Assembly (NCBI GenBank): GCA_016700095.1
Contig: CP065002.1
Location: forward strand, 1,060,145-1,124,144
From: Candidatus Woesebacteria bacterium
GTDB taxonomy: Bacteria; Patescibacteriota; Microgenomatia; UBA8517
Direction of reading: 5' to 3'
DNA length: 64,000 nt
This document shows positions 16,952 to 35,876 of the stretch, piece by piece. The notes under the pieces were generated by a model that saw nothing but the letters and a program-made list of their open reading frames with translations, was not told the DNA's origin and ran no database searches. The position numbers and the translations under genes are program-made. The first letter of the stretch is position 1, and every line of letters begins with the position of its first letter.

Positions 16952-17083
16952 AAGACGGGAAACATTCGGACCGGCAAAATACTCTTAAAATTCCAATATC
17001 AAGGCTGGATTCATATATGTCCTACTTAACCCAGAGAATAAGGATTCTAACCCCTCATTTTGCTATAATCCTTATATAACTAT

Positions 17084-17647: not shown

Positions 17648-17655
17648 AAATAGTT

Positions 17656-18993: not shown

Positions 18994-19050
18994 GGTACCG
19001 CAACAATTAAGGGAAGTCCAGACGCAAAATACTATGAGGATTAATCTAAA

Positions 19051-21270
19051 TTATACAGTTATAAGGTCTTTTTCTGACCTCTTCAATAGAACTGCATTTG
19101 TTGCAACGATAATTGAAGAGACACTCATCAAGAGTGCTGAAATTTCGGGTCTTAGTGAAATATTAAATGCAGGGTATAGAACACCTGCAGCAACAGGTAT
19201 AGCTAAGACGTTATAAATTGATGCCCAAAAGAGATTTTGTTTCATTTTCCTTACCGTTGCTTTTGAAAGCCTAATCGCCCTGATAACATCAGCCGGATCT
19301 GACTTCATAAGAACGACCCTTGCAGTTTCTATTGCAACATCAGTCCCCGCACCAATAGCGATTCCTATATCTGCTTGAGCAAGTGCTGGGGCATCATTCA
19401 CGCCATCTCCAACCATTGCGACAAATTTTCCTTCTTTTTGTAATTTCTTAACATAAGAAGCTTTATCCTCTGGCATTACATCCGCAAACACTCGCTTTAT
19501 TCCAAGTTTTTTCGCTACTGCAAGAGCTGTGGTTTCATTATCTCCTGTAATCATAGCTGTTTCGATACCTAGCTCATTCATCCGATCAACTGCTTTTTTG
19601 GCATTTTCTTTAATAGGGTCAGCTGCACCAACAACGGCTTTTACTTGTCCGTTCACGGCAAGAACCATGATTGTTTGTCCACTTTTTAAAAATGACTGTA
19701 TTTTAGTATCAAGTGGTGTAACATCAACATTATTTTCTCTCATGAGCTTTACCGTACCCACTAATACCTTTTTTCCTTCAATGACTGCCCGTACTCCTAA
19801 ACCTGAAAGATTCTCAAATTTTTCAATTCTGGTTGGAAGCTTAATCTTTTTACTCTTCATTTCTTCAAGAACTGCATTTGCAAGTGGATGGCTCGACTTT
19901 GCTTCTGCAGCTCCAATAAGTTGCAAAGCCTCTTTATCACTGAAGCCCTTAACACTACTCATGCTTGTAATTTTAGGCTTACCCTCTGTTAACGTTCCCG
20001 TTTTATCAAGCACGACGGCTTGAATTTTTGATACCTGCTCAAGAGTGGGAGCATCTTTAATAAGAATGTTGTGCTTTGCTCCAAGTCCTGTCCCAACTGC
20101 AACAGCAGTAGGTGTTGCAAGTCCTAATGCATCAGGACAGGCGATTACGACAGCAGATATTGCAAAAGTAAGTGCAAAGAGTAAAGGCTGTCCTGCTATA
20201 AAATACCAGACGGCAAAAGTAAGTAGACCGCTTCCTACGGCAAGAATTACCAAATAACCAGCGAATTTATCGGCGATTTTTTGTCCAGGAGCTTTGGAGT
20301 TCTGTGCTGTTTCAACCATTTTTGCTATTTGTGAAAGAGCAGTATCTTCTCCTACTTTTGTTGCTTTGAACTGAACTGACCCTGATTGATTGATAGATCC
20401 CCCAATAACCTGATCTCCACTACTTTTAGCAACAGGTATAGATTCTCCTGTAACGAGGGATTCATCAATTGCCGTTTCACCTTCAATAATTTCACCATCA
20501 ACAGGCACTTTATCACCAGGTTTTAATACTAATATATCTCCGATTTTTACCTCAGAAGTTGAAACCAACTCCTCTTTTCCATTTCTAAGGAGTCTTGCCT
20601 GGGGTGGAACTAAATTAAACAAAGCTTGGAGAGCGTCTGTCGTACCACGACGTGATTTCATCTCCATCCAATGTCCAAAGAGGACGAATGTAATAAGCAT
20701 TGCTGCTGCTTCATAGAATGTTTCATGACTCCCAAGCAGGGTGAGTATCACACTGAAACCATACGCTGCTGTTATACCCACCGCGATAAGCACAGACATT
20801 CCTAGCCGTCGGGTTTTCAATTCATAGTAAGAAGAATACAAGAATAACCAGCCACCATAAAAGAAAACCGGTGTTGTTAGCAAAAAGAGAAGCCAGGGAA
20901 TGGGAATTGGTGAGGGTAGGTTCCAATTAAACAGCATTCTACCCATTGAATATGCAAGGATAGGGATCGTTAAAATGAACGAGAAAAAGAACTTATTTCG
21001 TATATCCTCTTCCATGAGCTTTGCCATCTCACGTCCTGCTTTTCCTGTGTGATCCATACCCATTGTCATAGTCATGCTCATCTTTATTTTTTCCCAAAAG
21101 GACATATCATCAATGGGTTTCATTGTGTGCTCATGACTCATATGGCTTTCATGCATTCCATGTTTATCATTCTTTACTTCAACAAGTGCCATACCACATT
21201 TAGGACAAACACCAGGTTTGTCTTTTCTGACTTCAGGATGCATTGGACAGGAATATGTTTTGTTACTCAT
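19051..21270 (-). CDS. Heavy-metal (copper-type) P1B ATPase with an N-terminal CPxHPE...CPxCGM metal-binding domain, a His/Met-rich stretch and an atypical CPD transmembrane motif
   Basis: CPMHPEVRKDKPGVCPKCGM; HGMHESHMSHEHTM...MSMTMTMGMDH; DKTGTLT phosphorylation site; GDGVNDAPAL hinge. TM6 reads IACPDALGLATP, i.e. CPD where CPC or CPH is usual. Confidence 0.9.
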   Translation of the reverse strand: MSNKTYSCPMHPEVRKDKPGVCPKCGMALVEVKNDKHGMHESHMSHEHTMKPIDDMSFWEKIKMSMTMTMGMDHTGKAGREMAKLMEEDIRNKFFFSFILTIPILAYSMGRMLFNWNLPSPIPIPWLLFLLTTPVFFYGGWLFLYSSYYELKTRRLGMSVLIAVGITAAYGFSVILTLLGSHETFYEAAAMLITFVLFGHWMEMKSRRGTTDALQALFNLVPPQARLLRNGKEELVSTSEVKIGDILVLKPGDKVPVDGEIIEGETAIDESLVTGESIPVAKSSGDQVIGGSINQSGSVQFKATKVGEDTALSQIAKMVETAQNSKAPGQKIADKFAGYLVILAVGSGLLTFAVWYFIAGQPLLFALTFAISAVVIACPDALGLATPTAVAVGTGLGAKHNILIKDAPTLEQVSKIQAVVLDKTGTLTEGKPKITSMSSVKGFSDKEALQLIGAAEAKSSHPLANAVLEEMKSKKIKLPTRIEKFENLSGLGVRAVIEGKKVLVGTVKLMRENNVDVTPLDTKIQSFLKSGQTIMVLAVNGQVKAVVGAADPIKENAKKAVDRMNELGIETAMITGDNETTALAVAKKLGIKRVFADVMPEDKASYVKKLQKEGKFVAMVGDGVNDAPALAQADIGIAIGAGTDVAIETARVVLMKSDPADVIRAIRLSKATVRKMKQNLFWASIYNVLAIPVAAGVLYPAFNISLRPEISALLMSVSSIIVATNAVLLKRSEKDLITV

Positions 21271-21297
21271 AACTATTTCTCAGCTGCATAATATATT

Positions 21298-21318
21298 TGT
21301 ACTACTTATTGTAGTACA
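21298..21318. promoter_or_regulatory. Palindromic operator TGTACTAC-TTATT-GTAGTACA (TACTAC-N5-GTAGTA) 28 nt upstream of the ATPase start
   Basis: Perfect 8-bp inverted repeat. The same core is found at 26201, 27629 and 34774. Confidence 0.55.
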
Positions 21319-21321
21319 CAG

Positions 21322-21816
21322 TCAAAAGGATTTTTTGAGAGCGTTTTCGTATTTATATGGATTAGAGATTCCTGTCAGGGTAACTTCACCTTGATACCCT
21401 CCTGAAGCACTTGTTTTTAATATAACATCTCCGTAGTTAAAAATCTTTCCTAATAAAGACTGGTGTGTTGTAATAGATCTAATGTTTTCGAAATGAAATA
21501 CATCTTCTTCTGTGCTAAGTATTCCAGTTCTTTGTATTAAATGCTTATCTGTAAGAAAATAGGTATTATTGGCCCACTGCAAAATCACATAAGTAATGAG
21601 AAAAATTTCTAATATGATCTTTCCTATTTGTGTGATAAAGAGCATTACTGAAATGTGGTGATGGAAATCAAAAGGAATACCAAAGCCTAAATTAAGGAGA
21701 TAAAATATAAGGCTGTAAAGAGAGTCTATAATAAACAGTATAAGTGCAAGTTTTAGAGTTAAAACAAAAATGCTTCCTCTTATTGGTTCGACATTATGTT
21801 CGTGTTCCCTCGTCAT
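21322..21816 (-). CDS. Membrane protein with a bacterial PH (bPH_2/YdbS-like) domain
   Basis: Two TM helices, then LTDKHLIQRTGILSTEEDVFHFENIRSI...GDVILKT, resembling the DUF304/bPH_2 family. Confidence 0.5.
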   Translation of the reverse strand: MTREHEHNVEPIRGSIFVLTLKLALILFIIDSLYSLIFYLLNLGFGIPFDFHHHISVMLFITQIGKIILEIFLITYVILQWANNTYFLTDKHLIQRTGILSTEEDVFHFENIRSITTHQSLLGKIFNYGDVILKTSASGGYQGEVTLTGISNPYKYENALKKSF

Positions 21817-22039
21817 ACCTTGATCTCTTTCCTTTTAATATTTGGCTTATACCTCTTTTCACCTATTGTAAACGTCATCATAATCGGGCATAGAAGAACT
21901 ATTGTTAATAGTAATAGTACCGAAACATCAATAGATCTTTGAAAAAATAGAAAAGCTCCCATTGTCAAGACTACGATCCAAACAGGCCAAGATGTTTGGA
22001 GTTTTTTATTATTCAGATTATTTACACCTCCTCCACAAT

Positions 22040-23671
22040 TTAGATTACTTCAAACTGTGACATCATTCCCGCTTCCATATGCTCAGGTATATGACAGTGA
22101 AGCACCCAGTCACCCGGATTATCCATCTCGACAAGTAGCTCTACAGTATCACCAGTTTGGATAAGAACTGTGTCTTTCCAGACTAAATTTTGATTAGGTA
22201 CACCATTGGTATTAAGTACTAAGAAACGTTGTCCATGAACATGAATAGGGTGCTGCATTGGATGTGGTGCTTTTGGATCATTGATAAGTTTGAGTTTTAT
22301 TTTGTCACCTTTTTTAAACTGCCATTTTATATCCATATTCTCCTGCCTAGTTTCTGTATCAACAAGTTTCCAGTTAATCATTTTTGTATCAGACATCACA
22401 TTCATCTGACCCATATCATCTTCCCACTCAATCTTCTGAACCGTCCCGTCATTTAATGGCATTTCTTCATTACTCATCATTGATCCACCATGCATATTAT
22501 GCATACCTTCATTATTTTCATTTTGCTGCATCATATTCCCCATCATTGATAACGTCATATTGAGTGTTTTATCTGCAGGCTTTGTAAAGAGTGGTCGAAG
22601 GGCTGTAAGAGAGTTGATAAAATCTTGATTTACTCTTGGAACAAGAAGATAAGATGTGGTAACTGGAGTAGTAGCAACAGCTACTGTGCCCAGTGTATAC
22701 GTCTTTTCAGGTGTTTTATTAACTATCTGGAAATCTCCTGACTGTTCAAACCAGATTTCAACTATTGAGCGCTCAGATGGTCCTATTACAACTGTGTCCA
22801 CCCATTCTTCTTTTTCATATTTCCCGTTATCTGCACCTACTAATCTCATTCGAGTGTTTGGAATTGAAAAGTTAAATACTCTGGTATTGGCAGCATTCGT
22901 AAGATATAAGCGGACTCGTTCACCTTGTTTTATAGATAGTTTGTACTTGTCATCACCATTAATAAGCATGGTATTTCCATATCTTCCCATCAGGGTGTGA
23001 TTTGCTCCTGATTTACTAAAAGAGGCTATTTTGCCATTTTGAATGAGAATATCATCAAGAAACAGTGCTTCTTCCCGATCAACCTCTGCCCAATAATCTG
23101 ACTGATTTGGTGTCACAACATAATTACCATATAACCCCAGCTCTTGAGCATAGTCTTCTCGAAGATGTGGATGATACCAATATATTCCTTCATCAGGAAA
23201 CTTTATTTTATAAGTAAATGATTCACCGACTTTAATTGCTTCTTGGGTAACGTCCACTACGCCATCAAATTGATTATCAAGCCTTACTCCGTGTGAGTGG
23301 AGTGCTGTATCAACATCAGTGTCATTTTTAAAATTGAGAGTAATTTCTGAGCCTTGGTCTACTTTAATTAAAGGACCAGGAATTGAGCCATTATACGCAA
23401 GCATTTTGACTTCAGTGCCATTAATATTTTTTTTGACTATGCTTGCTGTCAAATCATAGGTATCACCATTTTTTAGCTCAACAACTCTTGATGCTTTTGC
23501 TTCAGGATAATTATTTACCTCTTTTGAATATTCTCCTGTCTTACTCGAACTTTCTCTTTGCTTCTGAGTATTTGAATACAAGTATATTCCTGCCCCCACA
23601 AGCACAATCCCAATAATAATCGCGGCTAGAACTTTTTGCATATTATTCATAACGAATTTCAATATTATCAC
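22040..23671 (-). CDS. Multicopper oxidase (CueO/PcoA-like) with a Met-rich insert
   Basis: Copper-ligand motifs WYHPHL and HCHIPEHMEAGMM. Met/His-rich segment MTLSMMGNMMQQNENNEGMHNMHGGSMM. Confidence 0.9.
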   Translation of the reverse strand: MIILKFVMNNMQKVLAAIIIGIVLVGAGIYLYSNTQKQRESSSKTGEYSKEVNNYPEAKASRVVELKNGDTYDLTASIVKKNINGTEVKMLAYNGSIPGPLIKVDQGSEITLNFKNDTDVDTALHSHGVRLDNQFDGVVDVTQEAIKVGESFTYKIKFPDEGIYWYHPHLREDYAQELGLYGNYVVTPNQSDYWAEVDREEALFLDDILIQNGKIASFSKSGANHTLMGRYGNTMLINGDDKYKLSIKQGERVRLYLTNAANTRVFNFSIPNTRMRLVGADNGKYEKEEWVDTVVIGPSERSIVEIWFEQSGDFQIVNKTPEKTYTLGTVAVATTPVTTSYLLVPRVNQDFINSLTALRPLFTKPADKTLNMTLSMMGNMMQQNENNEGMHNMHGGSMMSNEEMPLNDGTVQKIEWEDDMGQMNVMSDTKMINWKLVDTETRQENMDIKWQFKKGDKIKLKLINDPKAPHPMQHPIHVHGQRFLVLNTNGVPNQNLVWKDTVLIQTGDTVELLVEMDNPGDWVLHCHIPEHMEAGMMSQFEVI

Positions 23672-24152
23672 CCTCCTTCATCATGTAATTTTCAAAATCA
23701 GTATTTTCCTTTCCATTGACAAGCATTTTAACTGTTCCATCTTGACCGTTTTTCTTATCTAAAATTGTTGTTGAGTTAAAGTCCTCCCCCCAAATTTTAA
23801 AGAAATTGCCAAGTTTTGTATCATCTTTCGTAACTACTCCCTGCGCTTCTATATGTACCACACCATCTTTTGCATCTGTATCGTGAGTATGAATCTTTTG
23901 ATGCACTGCTCCAAGTCCAATATTAGCTGGAAGTTCTTGTTTCAGACCTTTAATAATAATCGTAAGCTTTGGATGCCAGTGCAACCCGTTGTTTGCTACT
24001 ACCTGGTCAGGAGGGACAGATGATTCGCTACCTTTTGATAAAAAGAAAACTCCACCAATTAGTATAGATATTGTTAAAAGTGCTATTCCACCAATTACTC
24101 TCTTCTCAGTTGTCATAATCCTTACTGATTTCTGCATCATAGCTATCATCAA
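23643..24152 (-). CDS. Membrane-anchored periplasmic protein with His-rich motifs (possible metal-binding; hypothetical)
   Basis: N-terminal TM helix, and HWHP and HTHDTD motifs. It overlaps the MCO start, so it is translationally coupled within the copper operon. Confidence 0.4.
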   Translation of the reverse strand: MMIAMMQKSVRIMTTEKRVIGGIALLTISILIGGVFFLSKGSESSVPPDQVVANNGLHWHPKLTIIIKGLKQELPANIGLGAVHQKIHTHDTDAKDGVVHIEAQGVVTKDDTKLGNFFKIWGEDFNSTTILDKKNGQDGTVKMLVNGKENTDFENYMMKEGDNIEIRYE

Positions 24153-24339
24153 GTTTTTTAATTATAGAAATAATCTTATCTATTGAAATTTTCTCTGGAT
24201 CAAAGGTAACCTCAGTTTGCTGCTTTGCATAGTTTGTTTTTGCTTCTTTAACCCCTTCAGTATCCTCAAGCTCACCATCTATATTCATAGCGCAGCTTGT
24301 ACAATGCATACCAAATATATTTAGTTTTACTTTTTGCAT
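24106..24339 (-). CDS. copZ: Copper chaperone, heavy-metal-associated domain
   Basis: GMHCTSCA is the MxCxxC motif of the HMA domain. The protein is 77 aa. Confidence 0.85.
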   Translation of the reverse strand: MQKVKLNIFGMHCTSCAMNIDGELEDTEGVKEAKTNYAKQQTEVTFDPEKISIDKIISIIKKLDDSYDAEISKDYDN

Positions 24340-24344
24340 ATGTT

Positions 24345-25379
24345 TTATATTACGTTAATTGTTCCTCTATACATTCCCATACTGCACATGAACGGTATTT
24401 GTGTGCCTGGTTCATTTGGTGCGGTAAAGGTGACCGTATCAGTGTTTCCATTTGTGACGATTTTTTGGATATTGTACTTCGGTAGAGTAAACGCCTGTGC
24501 ACATCCACCTCCACCATTATTTACTAACCGTAGAGTTACTTTGGAACCAGCCTTAACATTTATGTTGTTGGGATTATATCCATTGTTATCAATAGTAATT
24601 GTTGCATCAGTTACGGCAACTGCTGCCTGAGCAGTAGGAGAAAAATCTCCTTCGCAAAAGGTGAATGTGCAATAGAAATTTGACCACACATTATCGAGTG
24701 TCAGATTACTTCCAGTTAATGCTATCGCTCCATTAAGATTATATACAGCAAGAAGAATAAGTGCATACGCTGCTACTTTTAAAAACCGTTTATGCATTGC
24801 ATCCCCGAGCCTCGTTGCGAGATACCCAAGTGTAAAAAAGACTGGAGAAGTTCCCAGTGTAAAAGCAGCAAGTATTGCAGCTCCATATACTGGGTTACCG
24901 GATGCAATCGCTAACGCCATCATTGCCTGTGTCGTCCCGCAGGGAATAAACACAGTAAACGCTCCAAGCATAGCAGGTGCAAAAATGCTATTACTTTTTG
25001 ACTGGTTCCTCACGAGTTTTGTTAGAAACTTAGGTGGCTGGATAATAAAGTATCTGAATATCGGGTGTACATTTAAAAGATTCAATGCCGTCCCGATCAT
25101 AAAGACTGCAACTGCAACCGTCATTATAATTTTCGCTGTAAGTGATAACTGAACAACTGAACCAAGCCAGCCAAGCAAGAAGCCAAGAATGGTATAAGCA
25201 ATTACCTTCGCAATGAGAAAAGAAATGATAGGTAATGCGTTACCAGAATTTTTGGTTTTTTCTTTTAATTTTTCTTCTTCACGCTGCGCAATTGTTGTGG
25301 CTAGAAGACCTCCTTGCACAGCAAGGCAAGTAAGACCACCTGTAAAAAGTCCTGTTAAAAATATTGCCCACAAGTTCAT
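24345..25379 (-). CDS. Polytopic membrane protein (CcdA/DsbD_2- or TauE-like permease core) fused to a C-terminal cupredoxin-like domain
   Basis: Six or more TM helices with intramembrane Cys (GGLTCLAVQGG, FIPCGTTQ). The C-terminal roughly 100 aa carry a beta-sandwich-like pattern ending GGGGCAQAF...FMCSMGMYRGTINVI. It lies between copZ and the dsbA-like gene. Confidence 0.45.
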   Translation of the reverse strand: MNLWAIFLTGLFTGGLTCLAVQGGLLATTIAQREEEKLKEKTKNSGNALPIISFLIAKVIAYTILGFLLGWLGSVVQLSLTAKIIMTVAVAVFMIGTALNLLNVHPIFRYFIIQPPKFLTKLVRNQSKSNSIFAPAMLGAFTVFIPCGTTQAMMALAIASGNPVYGAAILAAFTLGTSPVFFTLGYLATRLGDAMHKRFLKVAAYALILLAVYNLNGAIALTGSNLTLDNVWSNFYCTFTFCEGDFSPTAQAAVAVTDATITIDNNGYNPNNINVKAGSKVTLRLVNNGGGGCAQAFTLPKYNIQKIVTNGNTDTVTFTAPNEPGTQIPFMCSMGMYRGTINVI

Positions 25380-25382
25380 AAT

Positions 25383-26183
25383 TTATTGTAATTGTTTATC
25401 TATTTCTGCTTTAAATGTTGCAAACGGCATAGCACCCACAAGCGGCGTACCAGTAATAACCCCATCAGAAGTTGATTTACCTATAAAAAATGTTGGTGTG
25501 CCAGTTGCACCTACAGCTGCAGCATCTGCCAAATCTTTATCTACCTCGGCTTTATATTTATCTGAGTCAAGACATGATTGCAAAACTGAGCCATCTAGCC
25601 CTAGATCATTCGCGATAACTGATAACTGATCAAGTGCTAGCCCTGTTCCATTTGAGGTTGTTTTGGTAAATATTGCATCATGGTATTTGAAGTATGCTTC
25701 ATCTCCTCCTTGTTCTCTTGCACACTCAGCAGCCTGTGCTTCTTTATGAGCATTTGCGTGGAAGCTTAATGGTAAATCTCGAACAACATACTTTACTTTA
25801 CCTGTATCGATGTATTCTTTTTTAATTTGTGAGAATGTCTCATCATAATATCGTTTACAGAATGGACATTCATAATCTGTAAAGTCTATTAGAGTAACCT
25901 TTGCATTTTTATCACCAAGTACAGGATCATCATCAATTGAAACTTGTTTTGGAGTGGTGTCCTCCGGAGGAGCTTGTTGAGGCGGGACTTGCTGTGCTGC
26001 ACCTTGTGCGTTTGCAGTTGCTCCTTTTGCTAAAGCCCCACCTTTTTCTAAGTACTGCATCTTTGTCCAAAGAGACCCAATTAGGAAGGATGCAACCATT
26101 AAAGCAGCTATCAACAATAGTTGTGTTTTATTCAACTTTGGAACTCGTAACGTTATGTATTTATTTTCTGTTTGTTCAGCCAT
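25383..26183 (-). CDS. DsbA-like thiol-disulfide oxidoreductase (thioredoxin fold, CPFC)
   Basis: N-terminal TM anchor. A Pro/Gln-rich linker. Active site YECPFCKRYY. Confidence 0.8.
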   Translation of the reverse strand: MAEQTENKYITLRVPKLNKTQLLLIAALMVASFLIGSLWTKMQYLEKGGALAKGATANAQGAAQQVPPQQAPPEDTTPKQVSIDDDPVLGDKNAKVTLIDFTDYECPFCKRYYDETFSQIKKEYIDTGKVKYVVRDLPLSFHANAHKEAQAAECAREQGGDEAYFKYHDAIFTKTTSNGTGLALDQLSVIANDLGLDGSVLQSCLDSDKYKAEVDKDLADAAAVGATGTPTFFIGKSTSDGVITGTPLVGAMPFATFKAEIDKQLQ

Positions 26184-26200
26184 AATATAGCTAATAACTA

Positions 26201-26219
26201 CCTACTACATATTGTAGTA
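26201..26219. promoter_or_regulatory. Palindromic operator CTACTACA-TAT-TGTAGTAG upstream of the dsbA-like operon
   Basis: Perfect 8-bp arms. It contains the TACA..TGTA core of BlaI/MecI/CopY-family operators and lies 18-36 nt upstream of the start codon. Confidence 0.55.
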
Positions 26220-26262
26220 GTATTACTTTAGGAATGTCAAGGGTAAAAAATATTAGAGGCTA

Positions 26263-27276
26263 CTAATGTGTTGGGGTATATGGTTGTGATGCGTTTGGTT
26301 GATTTACTTCAGTATTTGGTATTTCAGAATAAAACTTATTTAAACTTTTTTCACTTGCGCATGAATTCATACACGCCCCATCTGCGCACAACATCATAAC
26401 ATCATGTTCTTCGTGATGAAGCTCTTTAGCGTGTACCGGCACAACAAAGATTGTTGCAAGAATAAGTGAAGAAAATACTGTGATTAGTAGATGTTTTAAT
26501 TTAAACTGTTTTTTAACAAATGGTTTATCCACTAATGAGTAAATTCTTGGCTCTAGAGTATCATGATCGGCAATTGCAGCAACAGGCACTGACTGAACAG
26601 TTGGGAAAGCAAGTAGTTTTTTGAGGGCGGATATAAGTGCGTAATGATTACCCAGCCTTTTAACGGCATATTGGTCAGCAGCGATCTCCCGATCAATTCT
26701 GTATTTTGTGATGAGATCACCTACAAGTGGGAAGAAGGGGAAGAGCGAATGAGCGACTGAGGCAACTATCATAGTAAATGTATCCCTGTTCTCTAAGTGG
26801 TATTGTTCATGCAGAAGTACTGCCTCAACTTCTTTTACTGACAGTTGAGATAATAAACCAGTTGATATGTAAATTTTAGTAGTTCTGATTCCTAGACAAA
26901 ATGCGAAGTGTTTACTTGATTTTACTAAGCTTACCTTATCTTGCAACCCAAGGTGCATGATAAGTTTATCGATCTTTTGGTTAGCAAAGACATTACCTCC
27001 TAATTTATATTTCAGAAATTGTACTTTGATATATAAAATCAAAAATTTTATGATTGAGATCGTTAAAATAATAAAAAGGAACGCAAAAGGAATAATACTG
27101 AGATAATAGGGAATTGGAACCATATTTGCCTCTATTAGTAATGACTGACAGTAATATGTAACGTGACCTAAAAGCGGAGAAAACTTTTGAAGCGTGTAAA
27201 ATAAAAGCGTTCCCAATAAAAGAAATAACCCTGAAAATAAGGCAAGATTTTTATTTATTTTTATCATACTCGTCAA
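26263..27276 (-). CDS. BlaR1/MecR1-like M56 signal-transducing metalloprotease that lacks the penicillin-binding sensor and instead has a short His/Met/Cys-rich C-terminal tail
   Basis: Four-TM M56 core with LLHEQYHLENRD (HExxH). After a final TM helix the tail reads HAKELHHEEHDVMMLCADGACMNSCASEK. The gene overlaps the blaI-like gene by 26 nt. Confidence 0.8.
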   Translation of the reverse strand: MTSMIKINKNLALFSGLFLLLGTLLFYTLQKFSPLLGHVTYYCQSLLIEANMVPIPYYLSIIPFAFLFIILTISIIKFLILYIKVQFLKYKLGGNVFANQKIDKLIMHLGLQDKVSLVKSSKHFAFCLGIRTTKIYISTGLLSQLSVKEVEAVLLHEQYHLENRDTFTMIVASVAHSLFPFFPLVGDLITKYRIDREIAADQYAVKRLGNHYALISALKKLLAFPTVQSVPVAAIADHDTLEPRIYSLVDKPFVKKQFKLKHLLITVFSSLILATIFVVPVHAKELHHEEHDVMMLCADGACMNSCASEKSLNKFYSEIPNTEVNQPNASQPYTPTH

Positions 27277-27628
27277 GAACTTCTAAAAAATACTTTCTCT
27301 TTTTTTCCGGCAGTTTATCAATACTATCCGCAAATGAAGCGATTGCAGTATCACCAAAAGAGCTAATGAAGTTCTTTAAGAACGATTGAGCTACATTTTT
27401 AGTATATTTTCCTTTTGAAATCTTAGGAGAGTAAATATGCCCAGCAGTATTTTCTTTTCGAGTTAGGAGACCTTTATCGAAGAGTCTTTGTAGAATTGTT
27501 GCAACTGTAGTGTATGCAAGCTTTTTATCTGTCTCAAGTTTATTAAGTACATCTCGTGCTGAACAATTTTTGCACTCCCATACAATATCCATTATCTGCT
27601 GCTCAAGCTCACCAAGAGAAGGTTTCAT
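27251..27628 (-). CDS. BlaI/MecI/CopY-family winged-helix transcriptional repressor
   Basis: LGELEQQIMDIVWE...ARDVLNKL...YTTVATILQRLFDKGLL is the family signature. There is no C-terminal CxCxxxxCxC motif. Confidence 0.85.
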   Translation of the reverse strand: MKPSLGELEQQIMDIVWECKNCSARDVLNKLETDKKLAYTTVATILQRLFDKGLLTRKENTAGHIYSPKISKGKYTKNVAQSFLKNFISSFGDTAIASFADSIDKLPEKKRKYFLEVLDEYDKNK

Positions 27629-27643
27629 ACTACATATTGTAGC
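27629..27643. promoter_or_regulatory. Operator-like palindrome ACTACATATTGTAGC abutting the blaI-like start codon
   Basis: Matches TACTAC-N5-GTAGTA with one mismatch. Confidence 0.45.
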
Positions 27644-27661
27644 AGGTTAGATTAATAATCA

Positions 27662-28582
27662 CTACTTCAGATGCTTGTTATAAAAGTCCAAGGTTCTCTC
27701 CGAGATTAAATCCCACCCTAAATTCCTAAAGTTATGATCTTGTCCTTCATATTCAAAGTACTCAAGTTGCTTTCCTTCTTTTTTTAATGCGTCTGAAAGT
27801 ATAATACTTGTCTCAGGATCAACTTCTGTGTCAGATAGGCCTTGATGAAGACTTATTGGAGTTTTATTCTTTGTAAGATTACTCATGAGAGAGTTATCCG
27901 AAGAATGACCACCACCAAGTGTTGGTGCCCAGAGAACTAAAGCTTTAATTGCATCAGTAGCTTCAACAGTTCGCAATGAAGTTTCTCCACCCATACTATG
28001 CCCCCACATACCTACTCGGTTTGCATCTCCTTTTTCAATATTCTTGACCGATGCGAGTAAATTGAGTACGTCTATGGCGTATTCCGGTTGATGCCCTCCA
28101 CCTTGTCCTTCAGACTTTCCATGTCCCCGATAGTCTGATGCCAAAGTTATGTAGCCATTGTTTGCCAGTATAGTTGCCATTCCATTTGTTCCATCTCCAG
28201 TCTGAAACGTTTGAGTGTCATAGTAACCGTGATTGAGAAGAATTACAGGAAAAGGTCCGATCCCTTCGGGTATATTCATAGCTGCATAAATCTTAAGGTT
28301 ATCAGATGTGTAAGAAATGATATATGGAGTAAAGTTAGATTCATTAGGAAGCACTTCTTCAATTTTTATTTCTCCACCATTAAACTCTCTCTTTCGTAAA
28401 CCCTCAATAAAGGATCGATCCTTGTCACTATCATTTTCTAGCAATTGATCACGCTCTGTATTTATATTTTGCGAAATGCCTATTTGCTGATTTGAGACAG
28501 GGAAGCTTTGTCTTTGCCATAGAATAAATGCTCCTATTCCAAAGATTAATATAACAGCTAAAATTATTAACTTTCTATTCAT
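27662..28582 (-). CDS. Secreted alpha/beta-fold hydrolase (S9/dienelactone-hydrolase-like)
   Basis: Signal anchor at the N-terminus. Nucleophile elbow GHSMGG. Confidence 0.75.
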   Translation of the reverse strand: MNRKLIILAVILIFGIGAFILWQRQSFPVSNQQIGISQNINTERDQLLENDSDKDRSFIEGLRKREFNGGEIKIEEVLPNESNFTPYIISYTSDNLKIYAAMNIPEGIGPFPVILLNHGYYDTQTFQTGDGTNGMATILANNGYITLASDYRGHGKSEGQGGGHQPEYAIDVLNLLASVKNIEKGDANRVGMWGHSMGGETSLRTVEATDAIKALVLWAPTLGGGHSSDNSLMSNLTKNKTPISLHQGLSDTEVDPETSIILSDALKKEGKQLEYFEYEGQDHNFRNLGWDLISERTLDFYNKHLK

Positions 28583-28592
28583 AACAACTTAT

Positions 28593-29321
28593 TTAATGGC
28601 TCGACCATCTAAGGCTTTTTGTTTCTTCATTGTTATTTTGGTTTTTAACTTCATTAGTGCTTATTGAAATAAGAAACATTTTATTATTTGTCTGGTTTCT
28701 CGCATAAAGTTTTGTTCCCTCAGCAGATAGAGCAAGTTGGTGAGGTTTACTTTCGGGAGGCAGTTGTATTAAATCAACTTTATAGGTACTTGTGTTAATT
28801 TTATATATCGCGTTACCAGTTTCTGCTGAAGTATAAGCGTATTTACCATCTGGTGAAATTATCAAGTCAGTCAACCCTAACTGCATGCCTATGTTTAATC
28901 TCTTTGCAACATTATGTGTCTGAGTATCAACAACAAATATTTGATCGGAAGTCATCAATAAATGAATATGTTCGAGACTTTCCTTACTTATTGCTTGAAA
29001 CTGTTCTTCAGGTGCAGTTGCTGTTAGCCAAATTTGTTTTTTATCAGGTATCAGAGTAATATTATGAGGAGTAAATTTAATAGTAAATTCTCCTTCTTTT
29101 GCAGATAAGTCGATTGCGGTTATTTCTTTCTTGTTCTGTCTTCCCAATACTATTACTTTTCCTTCCCTTACTTTATACTCTTTTTTCTCTATATTTTGAG
29201 AATTATTTGCTTGTTGATTGGAAGAAGAGAAATTGGTCTTTCGCCACAGAATCAATCCTCCAACAGCTATAATGACTAAAAGAGCCAAAATTCCTATATT
29301 TCTTAGGTTCATAAATAACAA
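28593..29321 (-). CDS. Membrane-anchored beta-propeller repeat protein (YVTN-like)
   Basis: N-terminal TM helix. Repeated KLYA, KYAY and QIWL blade motifs. Confidence 0.5.
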   Translation of the reverse strand: MLFMNLRNIGILALLVIIAVGGLILWRKTNFSSSNQQANNSQNIEKKEYKVREGKVIVLGRQNKKEITAIDLSAKEGEFTIKFTPHNITLIPDKKQIWLTATAPEEQFQAISKESLEHIHLLMTSDQIFVVDTQTHNVAKRLNIGMQLGLTDLIISPDGKYAYTSAETGNAIYKINTSTYKVDLIQLPPESKPHQLALSAEGTKLYARNQTNNKMFLISISTNEVKNQNNNEETKSLRWSSH

Positions 29322-30227
29322 TTACCGAACTTTGTTCCATGAGTTACCACCATCTAAACTTTTATAAATACTATTTTTCTCAGTTAATGTATATAACATT
29401 TCAGGACTTTGTTTATTAAAAGCTATAAATAATGGTGTTTCATCATTAAATGTTTCGCTCAATTTTTCCCAATTTTTACCACTATCATTACTCCGAGCTA
29501 GTCCATTCATTTCAGAAAAAGATAATAACTTTTGTGAATCCTGGGGATGAATAGTCACGACCGATACAAATCCATCCAATAATGTACTCCAATCAGCTCC
29601 TTTATTTACACTGATCATCAACCCCTGTGGAGTTGCTGCATAGACTATGCTCTCATCTTTAGGATCAGCAGCAAGATTAATAATTGGATAGGTGCTAGTT
29701 GATGCAACTTCCCATGTCTTACCTTGATCTATGCTTCGCTGCAACATACCGTTATACCAACCATAAACAAGATTAGAATTTGCTGGGCTTATTGTCATTG
29801 CATGGAAATCAGCCGGACCTTGTATACCATCTGATACTTTATTCCAAGTGAACCCCCCGTCTACGGATTTTTGAAAGCCAATATTACCTCCTGTGCTAGG
29901 GTGTCCACTACTAAAAAGCACTTTAGGATCGCTCGGATGAGGGGTAAATCCCATATAGTCATCTTGAGTAGTTCCCACTCTATTTAACTCTTTATCATTG
30001 GTCAGAACGAGCAAACCATGATGAGTCGCAATATATACTCTACTTGGATCAGCAACATCAACCGCTAAACCATGTCCATGAGTTATTTCATCAACCTGAG
30101 TTATCTCTTTTGATACATTTTCAGTTTCTTTCTTTGGTGAATTATTGCCCTCCTGTCGAAATAGTACGAAAAATCCAACAATAGCTATCAAGACGAAACC
30201 TATTAAAATAATCTTATTCATTTTCAT
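29322..30227 (-). CDS. BNR/Asp-box repeat beta-propeller protein (Ycf48-like)
   Basis: Repeated SxDxGxTW-type motifs ([35 protein letters not shown]). Confidence 0.6.
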
Positions 30228-32563
30228 ATTTTATACCTTTTCAAGAGAAGTGAATTGGTTACAACTGAAACACTGCTAAAAGCCATTGCTGCACCAGCGA
30301 TTGCAGGATTAAGCATAATACCAATGAATGGGTATAGCGCTCCCGCTGCTACTGGGATTCCTACAACATTATAAAAGAAGGCCCAGAAAAGGTTCTGTTT
30401 GATTACTTTCATTGTTGTGCGAGCAAGCCTTATGGCTTTGGGTAGTTTGGAAATGTGACCGCCAAGTAGGGTAATACCAGCAGATTCGATAGCTACATCT
30501 GTTCCTGTTCCCATAGCAACTCCTACATCCGCAGTTGCCAAAGCTGGCGCATCATTTATACCATCTCCAACCATTGCTACTTTATACCCTTCGTCCTGTA
30601 GCTTCTTGACTTCATTAGCCTTATCCCCAGGGAGCACTTCAGCAATCACCCGATCGATTCCTACCTGTTTCGCAATGTACTCTGCAGTACGTCTGTTATC
30701 TCCTGTTAACATGGCAACTTTGATACCCAGCTTATGAAGGGCAGCTACCGCTTCCTGCGCATCATCTTTAATAGTATCGGCAATCGCAATATACGCAAGA
30801 ATTGTTTTTTTAGTTGCAAAAATTACTGGTGTTTTTCCTTGTGAAGTTAATTTTTTGATATGATTAGTGTCTACCGTTAATCCCAGGTCATCTGCTAGTT
30901 TAAGATTTCCGGCAAAGTAATGAGTTCCAGTAATCGTTCCTTCAAGACCTTTTCCTTCCAACGCTTTAAAATTAGAAACAGATAAGAAATTAATCCTCTC
31001 ATCTTTAGCTCTTCCTACTACTGCCTGGGCTAATGGATGTTCTGATTGTTTCTCTAATGACGCAAGCAGCTGTAATATCTTTTTCTGTGCTATATTCGAA
31101 GTCACCTTTATGTCAGTCACTGAGGGCGTTCCATTTGTTATTGTCCCTGTTTTATCCATGACAACAAAGTTAACACTCTGGAATTTTTCAAGACTTTCTG
31201 CATTTTTGATAAGAATTCCATTCTGTGCTGCTTTGCCAACTCCAACAATAACAGCAGTAGGTGTGGCAAGACCCATCGCACACGGACAGGCAATAACAAG
31301 AATACCGACAAAACTAATTAGGCCAAGTGAGAGACTTTGCGAAAAAGGCATAAATTGAGAACCTACAATAGTCCATAGAAAAAGCATGACTACTGCAAAG
31401 ACCAGAACAATCGGCACAAATATTCCTGATACTTGATCAGCTATTCTTTCTATCGGTGCTTTAGAACCCTGTGCTGACTCAACCATTTTGATAATTTGGG
31501 ATAGTACTGTCTGCCCACCAACCTGGGTTGCCCTCATCTGAAACGCACCATGTTTGTTAATTGTGGCTCCAATTACTGTGTCCCCAACAGTTTTATCTAC
31601 CGGTATGGGTTCACCAGTAATCATAGATTCATCAATTGAGGATTTACCAGAACTAATCTCTCCATCAACCGGAATTTTTTGACCTGGTTTGACAATTATG
31701 GTGTCTCCGACAACAACCTGCCCAATTGGAAGCTCTATTTCTTCTCCATCACGGACTACAACTGCAAATTTTGCCGCAAGTCCTAAGAGTTTTTCAATTG
31801 CCTCACCAGTCTTTAGTTTTGATTTTGCTTCAAGGTATTTACCTAATGTGATGAACCCGATAACAACAATGGTAACATCATAATATAGTCCTTCAGGAGC
31901 GTTTAAGAGTGACTTTATTTCAGGAAAAAGAAGCATGATACTACTATAGAAATACGCAACTAGTGTACCAATTCCGACCAATGTATCCATATTTGCAGCT
32001 CTATATTTAATAAAACGTACAACACCATTTATAAATGGTCTTCCTATCCAAAACATGACAGGAGTCGCCAGTATAAATGATGCTCTGTTGAACGCATCCA
32101 TCGAAAGAGGGAAGGTGGGAAGGAATGCCACACTATGTGCAAGAATTTCCCAAAGCATTAGAAGAAAAACCACTGCAGCAATCGGCATGACAAAAGCTGT
32201 TTTCTGTCTCATTTCTTCAAGTTCTTTAAGCTTCTGGTCTTTCGCCTGATTTTCTGAAGTAATTTGTGGATACTCGGAAGATTTGCCAACTTCAGTATCG
32301 TTGAGCGTATATCCAAGCTTACTAACTTGCTCATTCATTTGAGGCAAATCAACTTTTGTTGCGTCAAATGCTACTTCTGCCTTTTCTGTACCGAAATTAA
32401 CAGCGCACGTTGAAACACCATCGAGCTTTTCAAGTTTTCTTTTAATGATATTTGCACATGATGCGCAGTGCATTCCCTTAACCTGAAATGTTTTTGTTTC
32501 CATATTAGGGTGTTCCTCCCGACTGATTTGACCACAAACTAATACCATTTGGCATTTTGCCAA
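30224..32563 (-). CDS. copA: Cu(I)-translocating P1B-1 ATPase
   Basis: HMA domain [17 protein letters not shown]6 [27 protein letters not shown]. 779 aa. Confidence 0.95.
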
Positions 32564-33662
32564 CCTTTATTTTGGCAATCTCTTTATTAGTGGCAGTATC
32601 AATAACTGAAACATCATCACTTAAAAGATTGGTAATATATGCTCTTTTCCCATCAGGTGAAACAACGACACCATGCGGTGCAACACCCGCTTGAATATTA
32701 CTGGTAACACGCTTTTCTTGAATATCGATGACATATACATAATCGCTAGTTGGCTTGCCAAAGTAATAGCCCTGATCTGCAACATACAAATACCGACCAT
32801 CTGGTGTGGCATATGACTGTATTGCGCCTTCGGATTCAGATGGTAAACTTATATAGAAAACCTCTCCTGTGTCTGTATCATAAAATGCCATCTGCTTTGT
32901 GTCGTAAACAGAAGCGGCTATATAGTTGGTGTTAGGAATAACCGCTGTTTGTACCGCGCTTCCGGAAAGCAGGATAGTTGTTACTTCATTTGTTCTGGTA
33001 TCAACCACACCAATCCCTTTTCCGCCAATAAATGCAACATATGCTTTTGTATCATCAGTAGAAAGACGGAGTCCATGTGGTTGTGCGTCTTTTGTAAGTG
33101 GGATGGTTTTCTCAACTTTGTATGTTATTCCGCTTATTTTATATACTAGTCCTGGTTCCTGTGCGGTAGTAAAAGCAGTTTTCCCGTCCCTGGTTACAAC
33201 AATATGCGCAAGATGTTGGTCAGTTCCTATATCTATGCGTTTTACTATCGAGTCTTTTTGTGGATCAATCACAATTACTTGATCTGAAATTACTTCTTCT
33301 GTTTCATCATTTTCAGTGGAATCATTTTCTTCTTCATGTCCTCCAAGACCCATAAAGTTTGCCGTTACCCAAACACTTTTTCCATCTGGAGCTACTTGCA
33401 CATTATGCGCTGAATAACCGACTTCCATCTCTCCATTCTTATAAGTAAGATCGATCTTACCAAGAAGTGAGTTATCTTTTGTATCAATTATAGCGATTGC
33501 ACCCTCATCCTCTAGTGCTACATACAGTTTTTCTGTCGCTTGATTTTGCCTAACAGTTGACTTACTGGTGGGTACTATTCTATCTGAGAAAAAAGCCAAT
33601 CCCAACACGATTATTACGAAAACAAAGGAGGCGATTATATATATGTGTTTAGATAATTGCAT
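32505..33662 (-). CDS. YVTN-family beta-propeller repeat protein, membrane-anchored
   Basis: N-terminal TM helix. Repeated 40-residue blades ([45 protein letters not shown]). Confidence 0.6.
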
Positions 33663-33694
33663 AGCAAAAGTTATTATTTCCTACATTTCTTGAT

Positions 33695-34483
33695 TTAATT
33701 TACGACTACTACTCCTCCCGAACTTGGATTTAAGTGATCGTGGTACTCCCATGCACCTGTCTTTTTGAATATATATCGATAGACAGATCCTTTTGTGAAC
33801 GCTCTAAACTGATCAAATGTTGGAAGCTTTTCATGTCCCGGGTGATTGGCTGAGGCAACCCACATATTCATACTGCTTTCATTTTGAAACTCAACCATGC
33901 CTCCTTCATTAATTTCTATCTTATCTGGTGTAAATCCATTGTCTGTGTACTTTACAGTTACCATTCCTTCCATACTGTGTGCAGGCATATCTGATGTGTT
34001 TCCTTCAACCAGATTTCCTGGAAGGGGTTCACCAGATCTTACATACCTTGCAATCAATGAGCCTTTCTCATTAACTACCGGAATTTCAAGATCATTAAAA
34101 ACCTGATCGTTTTCCTGATCTTCATAAACCATTACAATTAATTCTTTATTCTTTATATCGACGTTGCCAAGCGGAATCTCTACATCAGTATGTGTTCCTG
34201 CTTTTAGGAAAGCACTTATCTCAACAATTTGACTCAGTGTGTCTCCTTGCATTTCACGAAGCGCAAGAAATCCATCTTTCTTAAGAGTTGCGCTTTTTAT
34301 AACTACTTTATTTGTTGGCGTTTGCGGAGCAACAACAAGATCTTGTGTGCTTCGATTGCGTTCTTGAACTTTTGTTTTTGAGTTCTCTTGAGCTTTTGTA
34401 CCGTTTTTATTAACCACAAAGTACAAAAGTCCTGATACGGTAATGGCAAAGAATAAAATAACAATAATTAAAATTCCTTTCAT
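33695..34483 (-). CDS. Membrane-anchored protein with a possible cupredoxin-like C-terminal domain (hypothetical)
   Basis: N-terminal TM helix. The C-terminal segment PDKIEINEGGMVEFQNESSMNMWVASANHPGH resembles a cupredoxin_1-type fold. Confidence 0.4.
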   Translation of the reverse strand: MKGILIIVILFFAITVSGLLYFVVNKNGTKAQENSKTKVQERNRSTQDLVVAPQTPTNKVVIKSATLKKDGFLALREMQGDTLSQIVEISAFLKAGTHTDVEIPLGNVDIKNKELIVMVYEDQENDQVFNDLEIPVVNEKGSLIARYVRSGEPLPGNLVEGNTSDMPAHSMEGMVTVKYTDNGFTPDKIEINEGGMVEFQNESSMNMWVASANHPGHEKLPTFDQFRAFTKGSVYRYIFKKTGAWEYHDHLNPSSGGVVVVN

Positions 34484-34752
34484 TGATATTTCTTAAAAAC
34501 TTGCATTATTTCCTTTAGAGCTTCATCCTTTTTACCTTTGTTGATTGCATCTGCTGCACATTTTTGTAAATGGTTTTCAAGCATGAGGTGATCTACTTCC
34601 TTTAAGGCTTTTTGAATTGCTTGTGATTGGTGAAGCACATCAATGCAATATACATCTTCATGAACCATTTTGATTACTTTCTCTAGTTGCCCCTTGGCGA
34701 TTTTGAGTCGGTGGATTATTCGCTCTTGTGTATCTTTAGGTCTGTATGCCAT
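34480..34752 (-). CDS. csoR: CsoR/RcnR-family metal-sensing repressor (Cu(I)-type C-H-C ligand pattern)
   Basis: 90 aa. RLKIAKGQLEKVIKMVHEDVYCIDVLHQSQAIQKALKEVDHLMLENHLQKC carries the Cys/His/Cys triad. Confidence 0.8.
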   Translation of the reverse strand: MAYRPKDTQERIIHRLKIAKGQLEKVIKMVHEDVYCIDVLHQSQAIQKALKEVDHLMLENHLQKCAADAINKGKKDEALKEIMQVFKKYQ

Positions 34753-34773
34753 ATACCCCCCATGGAGATAATC

Positions 34774-34792
34774 TACTACATCATGTAGTAGT
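34774..34792. promoter_or_regulatory. Palindromic operator CTACTACAT-C-ATGTAGTAG 22 nt upstream of csoR
   Basis: Perfect 9-bp arms. Same TACTAC-N5-GTAGTA core as the other three sites. Confidence 0.55.
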
Positions 34793-34949
34793 ATGTCAAG
34801 AGCAGAATTCCTTCATATGAGATTTGGAAAGTAGGGGAGCTAATTATTTAAACTAAAGATACATCATTATTCTAGTTTCAAAAAGGATCTTTAATAACAC
34901 AAAAAATGCCCGATGTTATTCAGGCATTTTTGTCTTCGGATAGTAATAA

Positions 34950-35498
34950 TTACATTCCAAGATCAACTAAGATGTTTTTATTGCTATAAAAACTAGCATT
35001 ATATTGAAGTTTAAGACCTGTTGCGGTCTTTGGAACCTCAAATCCTACCCAATCAGTTTTTTTTGCTTTCGCTACTAATGCTCCATCCATTCCTAAAGAG
35101 CCAGAATTTTCTAGCCGTTTTCCAGTAACAGCAACTTGGTATTGATTGTTTTCACCATCAATAACAAACATCTGACCCATTGTAGTTATGAACTCTTGGT
35201 CTGACCCAGTATTTTCTATGGTCATATTCACATCTACCCAATGATTTCCTTCAGACGGCTTGGTATACTGAGCACCATCTGATGTTTCTACGTTGTTAAC
35301 GGTTAGAATAACATCTCCCATCTGTACTTTGTCGCCAACCTTGTATGTCTCCTGACTTTGTTGTGAGTCATTATTTGAAGCTTGAGTATTATCAGAATTT
35401 GATCCTACTTTCTCACTATCACTACCCATACTGCTGAAGACGCCAATTACAATGATAACTAAGAGTGCAATTCCTCCCCATTTTAATAATTTCTTCAT
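34950..35498 (-). CDS. DUF4352-like secreted protein
   Basis: Signal anchor at the N-terminus. Ser/Asn/Gln-rich linker followed by a beta-rich domain (GDKVQMGDVILTVNNVE...NMTIENTG). Confidence 0.5.
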   Translation of the reverse strand: MKKLLKWGGIALLVIIVIGVFSSMGSDSEKVGSNSDNTQASNNDSQQSQETYKVGDKVQMGDVILTVNNVETSDGAQYTKPSEGNHWVDVNMTIENTGSDQEFITTMGQMFVIDGENNQYQVAVTGKRLENSGSLGMDGALVAKAKKTDWVGFEVPKTATGLKLQYNASFYSNKNILVDLGM

Positions 35499-35594
35499 TT
35501 TATCTACACCTCCTCTCCTTATAGGTTAAATCCTAAGTTACCGCTAATTATAGAGGAAATCAAGCACTAAATCTACTAATAGTGCGTTGTACTA

Positions 35595-35849: not shown

Positions 35850-35876
35850 TTAAAACATTATCCTTCAAATGTTTAT

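Follow-up and report, generated by a model that had tools for sequence, protein, structure and literature searches.

Results

Four palindromic boxes in a copper gene array

The window analyzed here, a 64-kb stretch of contig CP065002.1 from an uncultured Candidatus Woesebacteria bacterium (Patescibacteria), carries an array of genes at 19051-34752, all on the minus strand, that runs in order from csoR to a P1B-type ATPase with a CPD motif. Four copies of a palindromic box lie in this array, and they are very probably binding sites of the BlaI-type repressor encoded at 27251-27628, a prediction made from sequence. The initial annotation of this DNA had claimed four palindromic sites, and all four are found in one shared register. 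This register is a 17-bp palindrome, TACTAC-N5-GTAGTA (equivalent to TACTACA-N3-TGTAGTA), of which the window holds three exact copies and one copy with a single mismatch. The start previously given for site 1 stands, and those for sites 2 and 4 were each off by one base.

All four boxes are intergenic and sit 0-30 nt 5' of minus-strand gene starts, namely those of the HMBD/CPD ATPase, dsbA-like, blaI-like, and csoR genes. Operator 1 (TGTACTAC-TTATT-GTAGTACA; 21298..21318, minus strand, as for all features of the array below) occupies the spacer between the -35 and -10 elements of the ATPase promoter. Operator 2 (CTACTACA-TAT-TGTAGTAG; 26202..26220) precedes the dsbA-like gene. Operator 3 (TACTACATATTGTAGCA, or TGCTACAATATGTAGTA on the gene strand; 27628..27644) is the copy with one mismatch and abuts the start codon of blaI, such that its first base pairs with the A of the ATG (27628..27626). 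Operator 4 (CTACTACAT-C-ATGTAGTAG; 34773..34791) lies in the promoter of the csoR operon.

The number of boxes is far above expectation. In the 64-kb window, which is the extent of the site count for this genome, three exact matches were observed against about 0.02 expected, and none of 100 shuffled sequences contained three or more. As an empirical null, we used all 89 other palindromes that can be built by permuting the half-site TACTAC. With up to one mismatch allowed, TACTAC gave four matches, compared with a mean of 0.24 for the control palindromes (maximum 2; n = 89). With up to two mismatches, the only other site in the window was a single self-overlapping offset match.

The repressor and an overlapping protease gene

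The 125-residue protein encoded at 27251..27628 is a winged-helix repressor of the BlaI family by its Pfam and NCBIfam matches. Residues 5-118 match the Penicillinase_R family (PF03965) with 93.7 bits against a cut-off of 22.6, and the sequence matches in the PDB are BlaI (1sd4), MecI (1okr), and Mycobacterium tuberculosis BlaI (2g9w). Residues S98-F99 align with the N101|F102 cleavage site of BlaI. The repressor shares 100% identity with a protein annotated from Candidatus Woesebacteria, in agreement with a host among the Patescibacteria.

The gene labels of the initial annotation are correct, but its gene list was incomplete in that it overlooked a second gene (26263..27267), which overlaps blaI by 17 nt. 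The two genes are adjacent or overlapping in all related loci inspected and are predicted to be translationally coupled. The product is a 334-residue membrane metalloprotease of the M56/M48 type that resembles BlaR1, as judged by Pfam and a structural model. It matches Peptidase_M56 (PF05569) with 56.4 bits against a cut-off of 31, and it has an HExxH motif at residues 153-157; H153, E154, H157, and E194 are invariant in 60 homologues. The AlphaFold2 model (pLDDT 81, pTM 0.74) retrieves Staphylococcus aureus BlaR1 as its top Foldseek matches in the PDB (8exq, 8exp, and 8exr; probability 1.0, E 6e-7, TM 0.42).

The protease lacks the sensor of canonical BlaR1. No transpeptidase or beta-lactamase match was found in Pfam, the protein ends about 55 residues after its last transmembrane helix, and the NCBIfam model blaR1_generic gives 46 bits, compared with a cut-off of 400. 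Two other segments are highly conserved. Loop 1 is a predicted beta-hairpin with conserved H35, Y38, Y39, C40, and S42 (YYC40QS), and the ~55-residue tail is predicted to form a beta-hairpin and two short helices and carries E282, H284, D289, a methionine, C294, C299, and C303. The homology with BlaR1 and its topology makes it likely that loop 1 and the C-terminal tail are both extracellular. Given the overlapping gene for a BlaR1-like M56 protease, the signal input is most likely proteolytic rather than copper binding by the repressor.

Conservation of the box in relatives

We retrieved loci around BlaI homologues 74-92% identical to the repressor, together with 80 loci drawn from one genome per species, and examined them as 20-kb pieces. 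Of these, 48 loci (752 kb; BlaI 40-92% identical) are of the Patescibacteria type, and throughout them the order blaI-blaR1-dsbA is kept alongside copper genes. These loci contain 106 boxes with at most one mismatch, compared with a mean of 2.2 (maximum 12) for composition-matched controls. A box lies within 150 nt 5' of blaI in 38 of the 48 loci at one mismatch or fewer and in 44 at two or fewer, usually 0-7 nt from the start codon. This tracking of blaI by the box supports the earlier proposal that the palindromes are operators of the BlaI-family protein. Almost every one of the 48 loci has a second box before a dsbA-like gene, which itself lies 3' of blaR1.

The other two box positions of the window recur as well. 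A box precedes csoR in L017, L022, and L030, and forms with two mismatches do so in L007/L008, L014, L024, and L058. A box precedes the HMBD-ATPase gene in L017 and L041, and the ATPase promoters of L001/L017 and L041 have their box at the same place as that of the window. Further genes headed by boxes encode DsbD-cupredoxin, DUF7282-cupredoxin, and plastocyanin-like cupredoxins, DUF305 and DUF3105 proteins, and a few unknown products. The content of the predicted regulon is thus copper-related: DsbA, DsbD-cupredoxin, CopZ, multicopper oxidase, P1B-ATPases, CsoR, plastocyanin-like cupredoxins, DUF305, and DUF3105.

The same box is found beside BlaI homologues of only 33-48% identity in Nitrospirae and Actinobacteria. 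These distant BlaI-BlaR1 pairs with TACTA(C/T)-N5-GTAGTA occur in Dermatophilaceae and other Actinobacteria (L075-L078, L090), in Georgenia (L079, L089, L096), and in Nitrospirae (L065, L067). In the Dermatophilaceae and related actinobacterial loci, the boxes form tandem pairs 25 nt apart. Georgenia has a single box between a divergent DsbA-like gene and an unknown gene of ~185 codons 5' of blaI, and in Nitrospirae, thioredoxin-like and ResB genes come after the operon. From the neighboring genes, the theme of these distant loci looks like thiol/disulfide chemistry more than copper.

An unbiased scan for the exact pattern over all metagenome contigs returned at least 120 matches. Among the first 120, 39 fall in loci with homologues of the island genes, mostly BlaI/BlaR1 with or without DsbA. 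We take this as a large enrichment because such genes must be rare in arbitrary loci, a background rate that is assumed here. The other listed matches are what chance would provide for a pattern of ~15 bases in a collection of that size.

Several loci depart from the common arrangement. L015 has two BlaI paralogues on one contig (10001-13225). The first, which shares 84% identity with the repressor of the window, has the diverged box TCCTACATTCCATAGTA, and genes for a truncated M48 protease and a LiaF-TM protein come after it; the second has a canonical box and a full-length protease. In L022 and L024, which are two copies on chromosome OZ246394.1, and in L035, blaI has no canonical box upstream, but the downstream box of dsbA is preserved. 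Another conserved stretch, ATTGTAAA-N-CTTATA-N-CATGTCTG, takes the place upstream of blaI in L022 and L024. Among L017-L062, many close metagenome-assembled contigs of ~1 Mb with the gene content of the Candidate Phyla Radiation (CPR) are labelled 'uncultured Gammaproteobacteria', which is probably a placeholder or a wrong label.

Two promoter layouts

Alignment of 108 distinct sites yielded a matrix with the consensus T1 A2 C3 T4 A5 C6 A7 (A/C)8 T9 N10 T11 G12 T13 A14 G15 T16 A17. The arms of the box are 96-100% invariant, with no compensatory changes. The center base T9 is T in 90% of the sites when read in gene orientation. This bias exceeds what dyad symmetry would provide, and one would expect it of positions 4-9, TACA(A/C)T, if they also serve as a -10 hexamer.

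The initial annotation called for a comparison of operator positions with -10 and -35 elements, and this comparison reveals two fixed layouts. In layout A, the -10 element TACA(A/C)T lies inside the box, with TTGACA (up to one mismatch) 14-15 nt 5' of the box in 62 of the 108 sites; it is used by dsbA and, wherever a -35 element is recognizable, by blaI. In layout B (6 of the 108 sites), TTGACA lies 3 nt 5' of the box, the box occupies the spacer, and the -10 element takes its first two bases from the TA that ends the box; this arrangement is seen at csoR and at the CPD-ATPase gene. Both layouts fit repression by a protein predicted to bind the box.

In 17.5 kb of the window, the two best sigma-70-like matches fall on sites 2 and 4. 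The dsbA-like promoter consists of TTGACA (26240..26235), an 18-nt spacer, and TACAAT (26216..26211) inside operator 2. The csoR promoter consists of TTGACA (34799..34794), an 18-nt spacer filled by operator 4, and TAGATT (34775..34770). For the ATPase, a putative -35 element, TTGACT (21320..21325), lies 3 nt 5' of the 17-mer, and the predicted -10 element is TACAAA (21301..21296). At blaI, a -10 element, TACAAT (27641..27636), is embedded in operator 3. With boxes in all four promoters that head the array, the earlier suggestion that one BlaI-family repressor governs the whole array, including its own promoter and csoR, is supported, and autoregulation of the repressor is supported by its operator.

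The ATG of blaI follows the embedded -10 element by 7-12 nt. This leaves no space for a Shine-Dalgarno sequence, and we therefore predict a leaderless, autorepressed transcript. In relatives, the blaI start, and in many loci the dsbA start too, falls 0-7 nt after the palindrome that bears the -10 element (L017 9985, L026 9973, L030 11421). Such spacing implies that leaderless or near-leaderless mRNAs may be made in these CPR bacteria.

A CsoR-type box beside the csoR operator

The first gene of the array encodes a CsoR-family repressor (34480..34752) that matches PF02583 with 82.4 bits against a cut-off of 22.8 and retains the Cu(I) ligand set C36, H61, and C65. Between the -10 element and the csoR ATG lies a CsoR-type box with G/C tracts (TTATCTCCATGGGGGGTATAT on the gene strand; 34751..34771), which occurs once in the window. 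Its consensus, ATATCCC-N4-GGGGGATAT, is found 3' of the -10 element in ~16 distinct related csoR promoters (17 with that of the window), in a survey that left out locus L032. In the window and in seven related csoR promoters, a BlaI box with at most two mismatches occupies the spacer directly 5' of the CsoR-type box.

The initial annotation had proposed that CsoR and CopY-like circuits are layered. Layering is supported at the csoR promoter in some lineages, where a BlaI-type box and a conserved CsoR-type box adjoin; the CopY-like half of the proposal is not, as discussed below.

Other genes of the array and its surroundings

Downstream of csoR, the operon continues with a DUF7282 protein with a cupredoxin-like domain (33695..34483), a beta-propeller protein of the YNCE/lactonase-like type (32505..33662), a CopA-type Cu(I) P1B-ATPase with an HMA domain and a CPC motif (30224..32563), and two beta-propeller/BNR-repeat proteins (28593-29321 and 29322-30227), these assignments resting on domain matches and motifs. 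An alpha/beta-hydrolase identified by Pfam (27662..28582) is the last gene of the csoR-headed unit. A strong hairpin with a T-run that resembles an intrinsic terminator (34902..34931, minus strand) lies 5' of the csoR promoter and would insulate it from upstream transcription.

After blaI and the protease gene, the dsbA-headed unit begins with the DsbA-like thioredoxin-fold protein (25383..26183), the most conserved target of the box other than blaI itself. It is followed by a DsbD_2 membrane protein fused to a cupredoxin domain (24345..25379; Pfam), a CopZ-like HMA copper chaperone (24106..24339; domain match), a 169-residue His-rich exported protein that belongs to no Pfam family and is kept in related loci (23643..24152), a multicopper oxidase (22040..23671; Pfam and NCBIfam), and a bacterial PH domain (bPH_2) protein (21322..21816; Pfam). 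The apparent gap between the last two genes is filled by a hydrophobic open reading frame of 48 codons (MGAFLFFQRSIDVSVLLLLTIVLLCPIMM...; 21817-21962, minus strand), and L014 has a DUF2933 gene at the equivalent position. The P1B-type ATPase (19051..21270) was assigned from Pfam, NCBIfam, and motifs and has an N-terminal HMBD, a His/Met-rich stretch, and the CPD transmembrane motif. This CPD (residue 378) is unusual compared with CPC or CPH, and the HMBD at the N terminus is zinc-ribbon-like, with the His/Met-rich stretch next to it.

One flank of the array holds a tRNA-Gln gene and a large serine recombinase (16813-18993), and the other (35877-39856) holds terminase-like, HTH, DNA-methyltransferase, and ParB-methyltransferase genes. 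In relatives (L004, L007, L012, L017, L024), the module lies beside type IV secretion genes, a portal-like gene, or serine recombinases. From these neighbors, the copper array looks like the cargo of a mobile island. No relatives of the repressor were found in the viral contigs of IMG/VR, a result that gives no reason to regard the island as phage-borne, although a terminase-like gene lies nearby. A megablast search of 17000-36000 against a plasmid database gave no match. A search of the whole window with Rfam had no hits between the genes of the array; elsewhere it found tRNAs and a DUF3800-IX RNA (55837-55908, minus strand; 56.9 bits against a gathering score of 36.8), which is unrelated to the copper array.

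Discussion

Comparison with known systems

In the broad sense, the system of the window is a BlaI/BlaR1 system, sharing the domain, fold, gene coupling, and autoregulation of that family, but it lacks the hallmarks of both canonical BlaR1 (the sensor domain) and CopY (the metal site, model score, and operator spacing). With S. aureus BlaI/BlaR1 and MecI/MecR1, it has in common the Penicillinase_R winged helix, a TACA/TGTA palindrome, autoregulation, and an M56 partner with HExxH; the structural model also matches the cryo-EM structures of BlaR1, and the cleavage-site residues of BlaI have aligned counterparts in the repressor. It differs from these systems in having no penicillin-binding sensor, no beta-lactamase or PBP2a gene, a regulon of copper genes, and N3 spacing in its operator.

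The closest precedent appears to be PetR/PetP of Synechocystis sp. PCC 6803, in which the protease PetP degrades the repressor PetR only when copper is present (bioRxiv 10.1101/2020.07.31.226407). The likeness, which we draw from the published description of PetRP, includes overlapping genes, a repressor without the CopY cysteine site, a protease without a beta-lactam sensor, a repressor site between the -35 and -10 elements, and cupredoxin targets (petE in Synechocystis and genes with cupredoxin domains here and in related loci). The dyad spacing is also equal, the PetR site being GACA-N3-TGTC with a GAC-N5-GTC core (bioRxiv 10.1101/2020.07.31.226407), compared with TACA-N3-TGTA in the window.

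There are differences as well. The half-site is GAC for PetR and TACTAC here, such that the core reads TAC-N5-GTA as part of a longer arm, and the PetR targets form a plastocyanin/cytochrome c6 switch, whereas those here are four operons for copper resistance and envelope thiol chemistry. The blaI promoter of the window carries a box, which implies autoregulation, whereas petRP mRNA was reported unchanged on copper addition. The putative sensor also differs, consisting here of loop 1 and the ~55-residue tail, whereas PetP has two conserved methionines, both in a 14-residue loop, and lacks a tail domain. No cyanobacterial homologues were among the 80 closest genomic relatives retrieved.

Short BlaR-like proteases without a transpeptidase-like domain are also known from M. 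tuberculosis Rv1846c/Rv1845c, Clostridioides difficile CenIR, and Clostridium thermocellum BlaI_0696, and these non-canonical BlaIR systems likewise have inverted repeats 5 nt apart (GTCTAT-N5 in C. thermocellum). The M. tuberculosis BlaI consensus, defined by Sala et al. in 2009, is reportedly of the TAC-N-AC-N5-GT-N-GTA type, and the actinobacterial homologues retrieved here have TACTA(C/T)-N5-GTAGTA. In contrast to the system of the window, the non-canonical systems have signals that are unknown or cell-wall-related, and they control no copper regulon. Compared with CsoR/RicR systems, the csoR gene of the window is similar in encoding the C-H-C ligands and in having a G/C-tract pseudo-palindromic box, its predicted operator, over its own promoter, but here CsoR is a second layer at one promoter and not the regulator of the TACTAC box.

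A model for repression and release

The operator and its predicted regulon are well supported, and we further infer a switching mechanism in which the repressor is cleaved and copper is the signal. Bound to the box, the repressor would occlude the -10 element in layout A and the spacer and the edge of the -10 element in layout B, such that RNA polymerase would be shut out of each of the four promoters in the 15.7-kb copper array, that of the repressor among them. Copper at the cell surface would be sensed by the Cys/His/Met-rich module of loop 1 and tail, either by direct binding or through copper-driven oxidation of thiols. The co-translated M56 zinc metalloprotease would then cleave the repressor near S98/F99 and relieve repression, as BlaR1 does for BlaI and PetP for PetR. 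At csoR-copA, cytoplasmic Cu(I) would also have to free CsoR from the box directly 3' of the BlaI box. The csoR promoter would therefore work as an AND gate whose inputs are copper outside and copper inside the cell, and both repressors would have to leave it. Taken as a whole, this combination of BlaI operators, BlaR1-like proteolytic release, copper sensing outside the cell, and an AND gate with CsoR is in our judgment the probable mode of action.

Several points weigh against this model. The case for copper as inducer comes from the gene content of the regulon alone, and the four conserved cysteines of the ectodomain might simply form structural disulfides. The site count for this genome covers the 64-kb window. 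The -35 element of blaI is weak in the window, and most transcription of blaI may therefore be read-through from the csoR promoter. In addition, BlaI boxes are missing from about half of the related csoR promoters, which makes the layering with CsoR lineage-specific. The other points of this kind concern the signal. A DsbA-like gene is the near-universal first target of the box, and among the distant pairs with this box, those of Georgenia and relatives are associated with a divergent DsbA and those of Nitrospirae with thioredoxin-like and ResB genes; the Nitrospirae locus examined (L067) is without copper-gene homologues.

With DsbA the most conserved target and thiol genes beside the distant pairs, the primary signal could be stress on thiols and disulfides outside the cytoplasm (oxidative folding stress) in place of copper. 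Under this reading, the operators and the proteolytic BlaI/BlaR1 switch would not change, the outer cysteines of the protease would respond to redox state, and copper would be just one of the things that can bring such stress about; the two models thus differ only in the identity of the ligand. It also fits a redox switch that the loop 1 cysteine is invariant even in distant homologues, each of which has cysteine in the tail. However, the boxes of Patescibacteria also head operons for Cu-ATPase, CsoR, CopZ, multicopper oxidase, cupredoxin, and DUF305 proteins, and the tail has, besides cysteine, the His, Met, Asp, and Glu residues typical of copper sites. The distant loci are not uniformly free of copper genes either, as Georgenia L079 has two P1B-ATPase homologues within ~9 kb, and PetP, the one characterized BlaR homologue without a sensor, answers to copper. 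On balance, we consider thiol stress the leading alternative, but an unlikely primary signal.

Much less probable is that the repressor works like CopY, the label used in the initial annotation. A CopY-like repressor would sense copper directly, with Cu(I) displacing Zn at a C-terminal cysteine cluster and freeing an operator of the cop-box type. The CopY/CopR/TcrY proteins of Firmicutes do share PF03965 with the repressor of the window, they repress copper-export operons, and their operator core is TACA...TGTA, as is found inside the box; CopY_TcrY (TIGR02698) is also the best NCBIfam match by E-value (1.2e-13). That match covers only residues 7-89, however, and its 51.5 bits fall well below the cut-off of 121.95. 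The only cysteines of the repressor are C19 and C22, both in the N-terminal winged helix-turn-helix; no cysteine after residue 22 was found in any of nine orthologues, and the C-terminal CxCxxxxCxC site is absent. The cop box is KACA-NN-TGTA (RNYKACANNTGTMRNY) (PMC7253601), whereas all sites here are spaced TACA-NNN-TGTA, placing the half-sites one base further apart. Finally, CopY systems have no protease partner, whereas in essentially all loci related to that of the window, blaI overlaps a gene for a BlaR1-like protease. The CopY-like label is thus largely refuted by the sequence already.

It is also highly improbable that the palindromes work at the RNA level, as hairpins of terminators, attenuators, or processing sites, or that they are a REP-like intergenic repeat. 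A terminator-pattern scan does mark sites 1 and 2 as short hairpins, and palindromes fold of necessity. However, the predicted hairpins are weak (-5.6 to -10.5 kcal/mol, z-scores -1.1 to -2.4), and no U run of the terminator type follows them on the gene strand. The invariance of the arms without covariation is a signature of protein recognition, and the fixed position of the box relative to TTGACA and its co-occurrence with blaI across phyla point the same way. We rejected a terminator or attenuator role on the weakness of the hairpins and the invariance of the arms. Equally hard to credit is a chance adjacency to blaI of a box bound by another regulator of the island, because, although CsoR is encoded nearby in the window and MerR and ArsR-type proteins in related loci, CsoR has its own distinct and conserved G/C-tract box, MerR and ArsR genes are present in some loci only while the box tracks blaI in 44 of 48 and in phyla without other island genes, and the half-site spacing is that of the BlaI-family protein PetR.

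Implications for Patescibacteria and the BlaI/BlaR1 family

In the literature that we covered, which excluded subscription journals, we found no BlaI-type copper regulon in Patescibacteria, no copper-resistance regulon controlled by BlaIR, and no copper-responsive BlaIR system besides PetRP. CPR bacteria are uncultured, and few studies of their gene regulation are known to us. It is possible, and we suggest it tentatively, that TACTAC-N5-GTAGTA marks an ancient subfamily of BlaI/BlaR1 pairs without the sensor domain that spans Patescibacteria, Actinobacteria, and Nitrospirae. This subfamily may originally have monitored thiols and copper at the cell surface through a cysteine-containing ectodomain, and in Patescibacteria it may have been recruited as the master switch of a mobile copper island, in series with CsoR.

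If the proposed mechanism is correct, it would represent a new mode of sensing for the BlaR1 family, with its compact ectodomain of Cys, His, and Met residues a candidate for the sensor of metal or redox state, and the regulon would be among the few transcriptional regulons defined for CPR bacteria. The regulon is described here with some precision: a 17-bp operator with a matrix of 108 sites, two promoter layouts, a predicted leaderless and autoregulated repressor gene, and defined target operons for copper and thiol redox chemistry on a mobile island. It would also be a second copper-linked example of BlaIR beyond cyanobacterial PetRP, one that serves resistance and not the choice of cofactor, and it extends the recently recognized idea that most BlaI/BlaR1 pairs are unrelated to beta-lactams. 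The stacked BlaI and CsoR boxes at one promoter would represent a simple natural design for a switch with two inputs.

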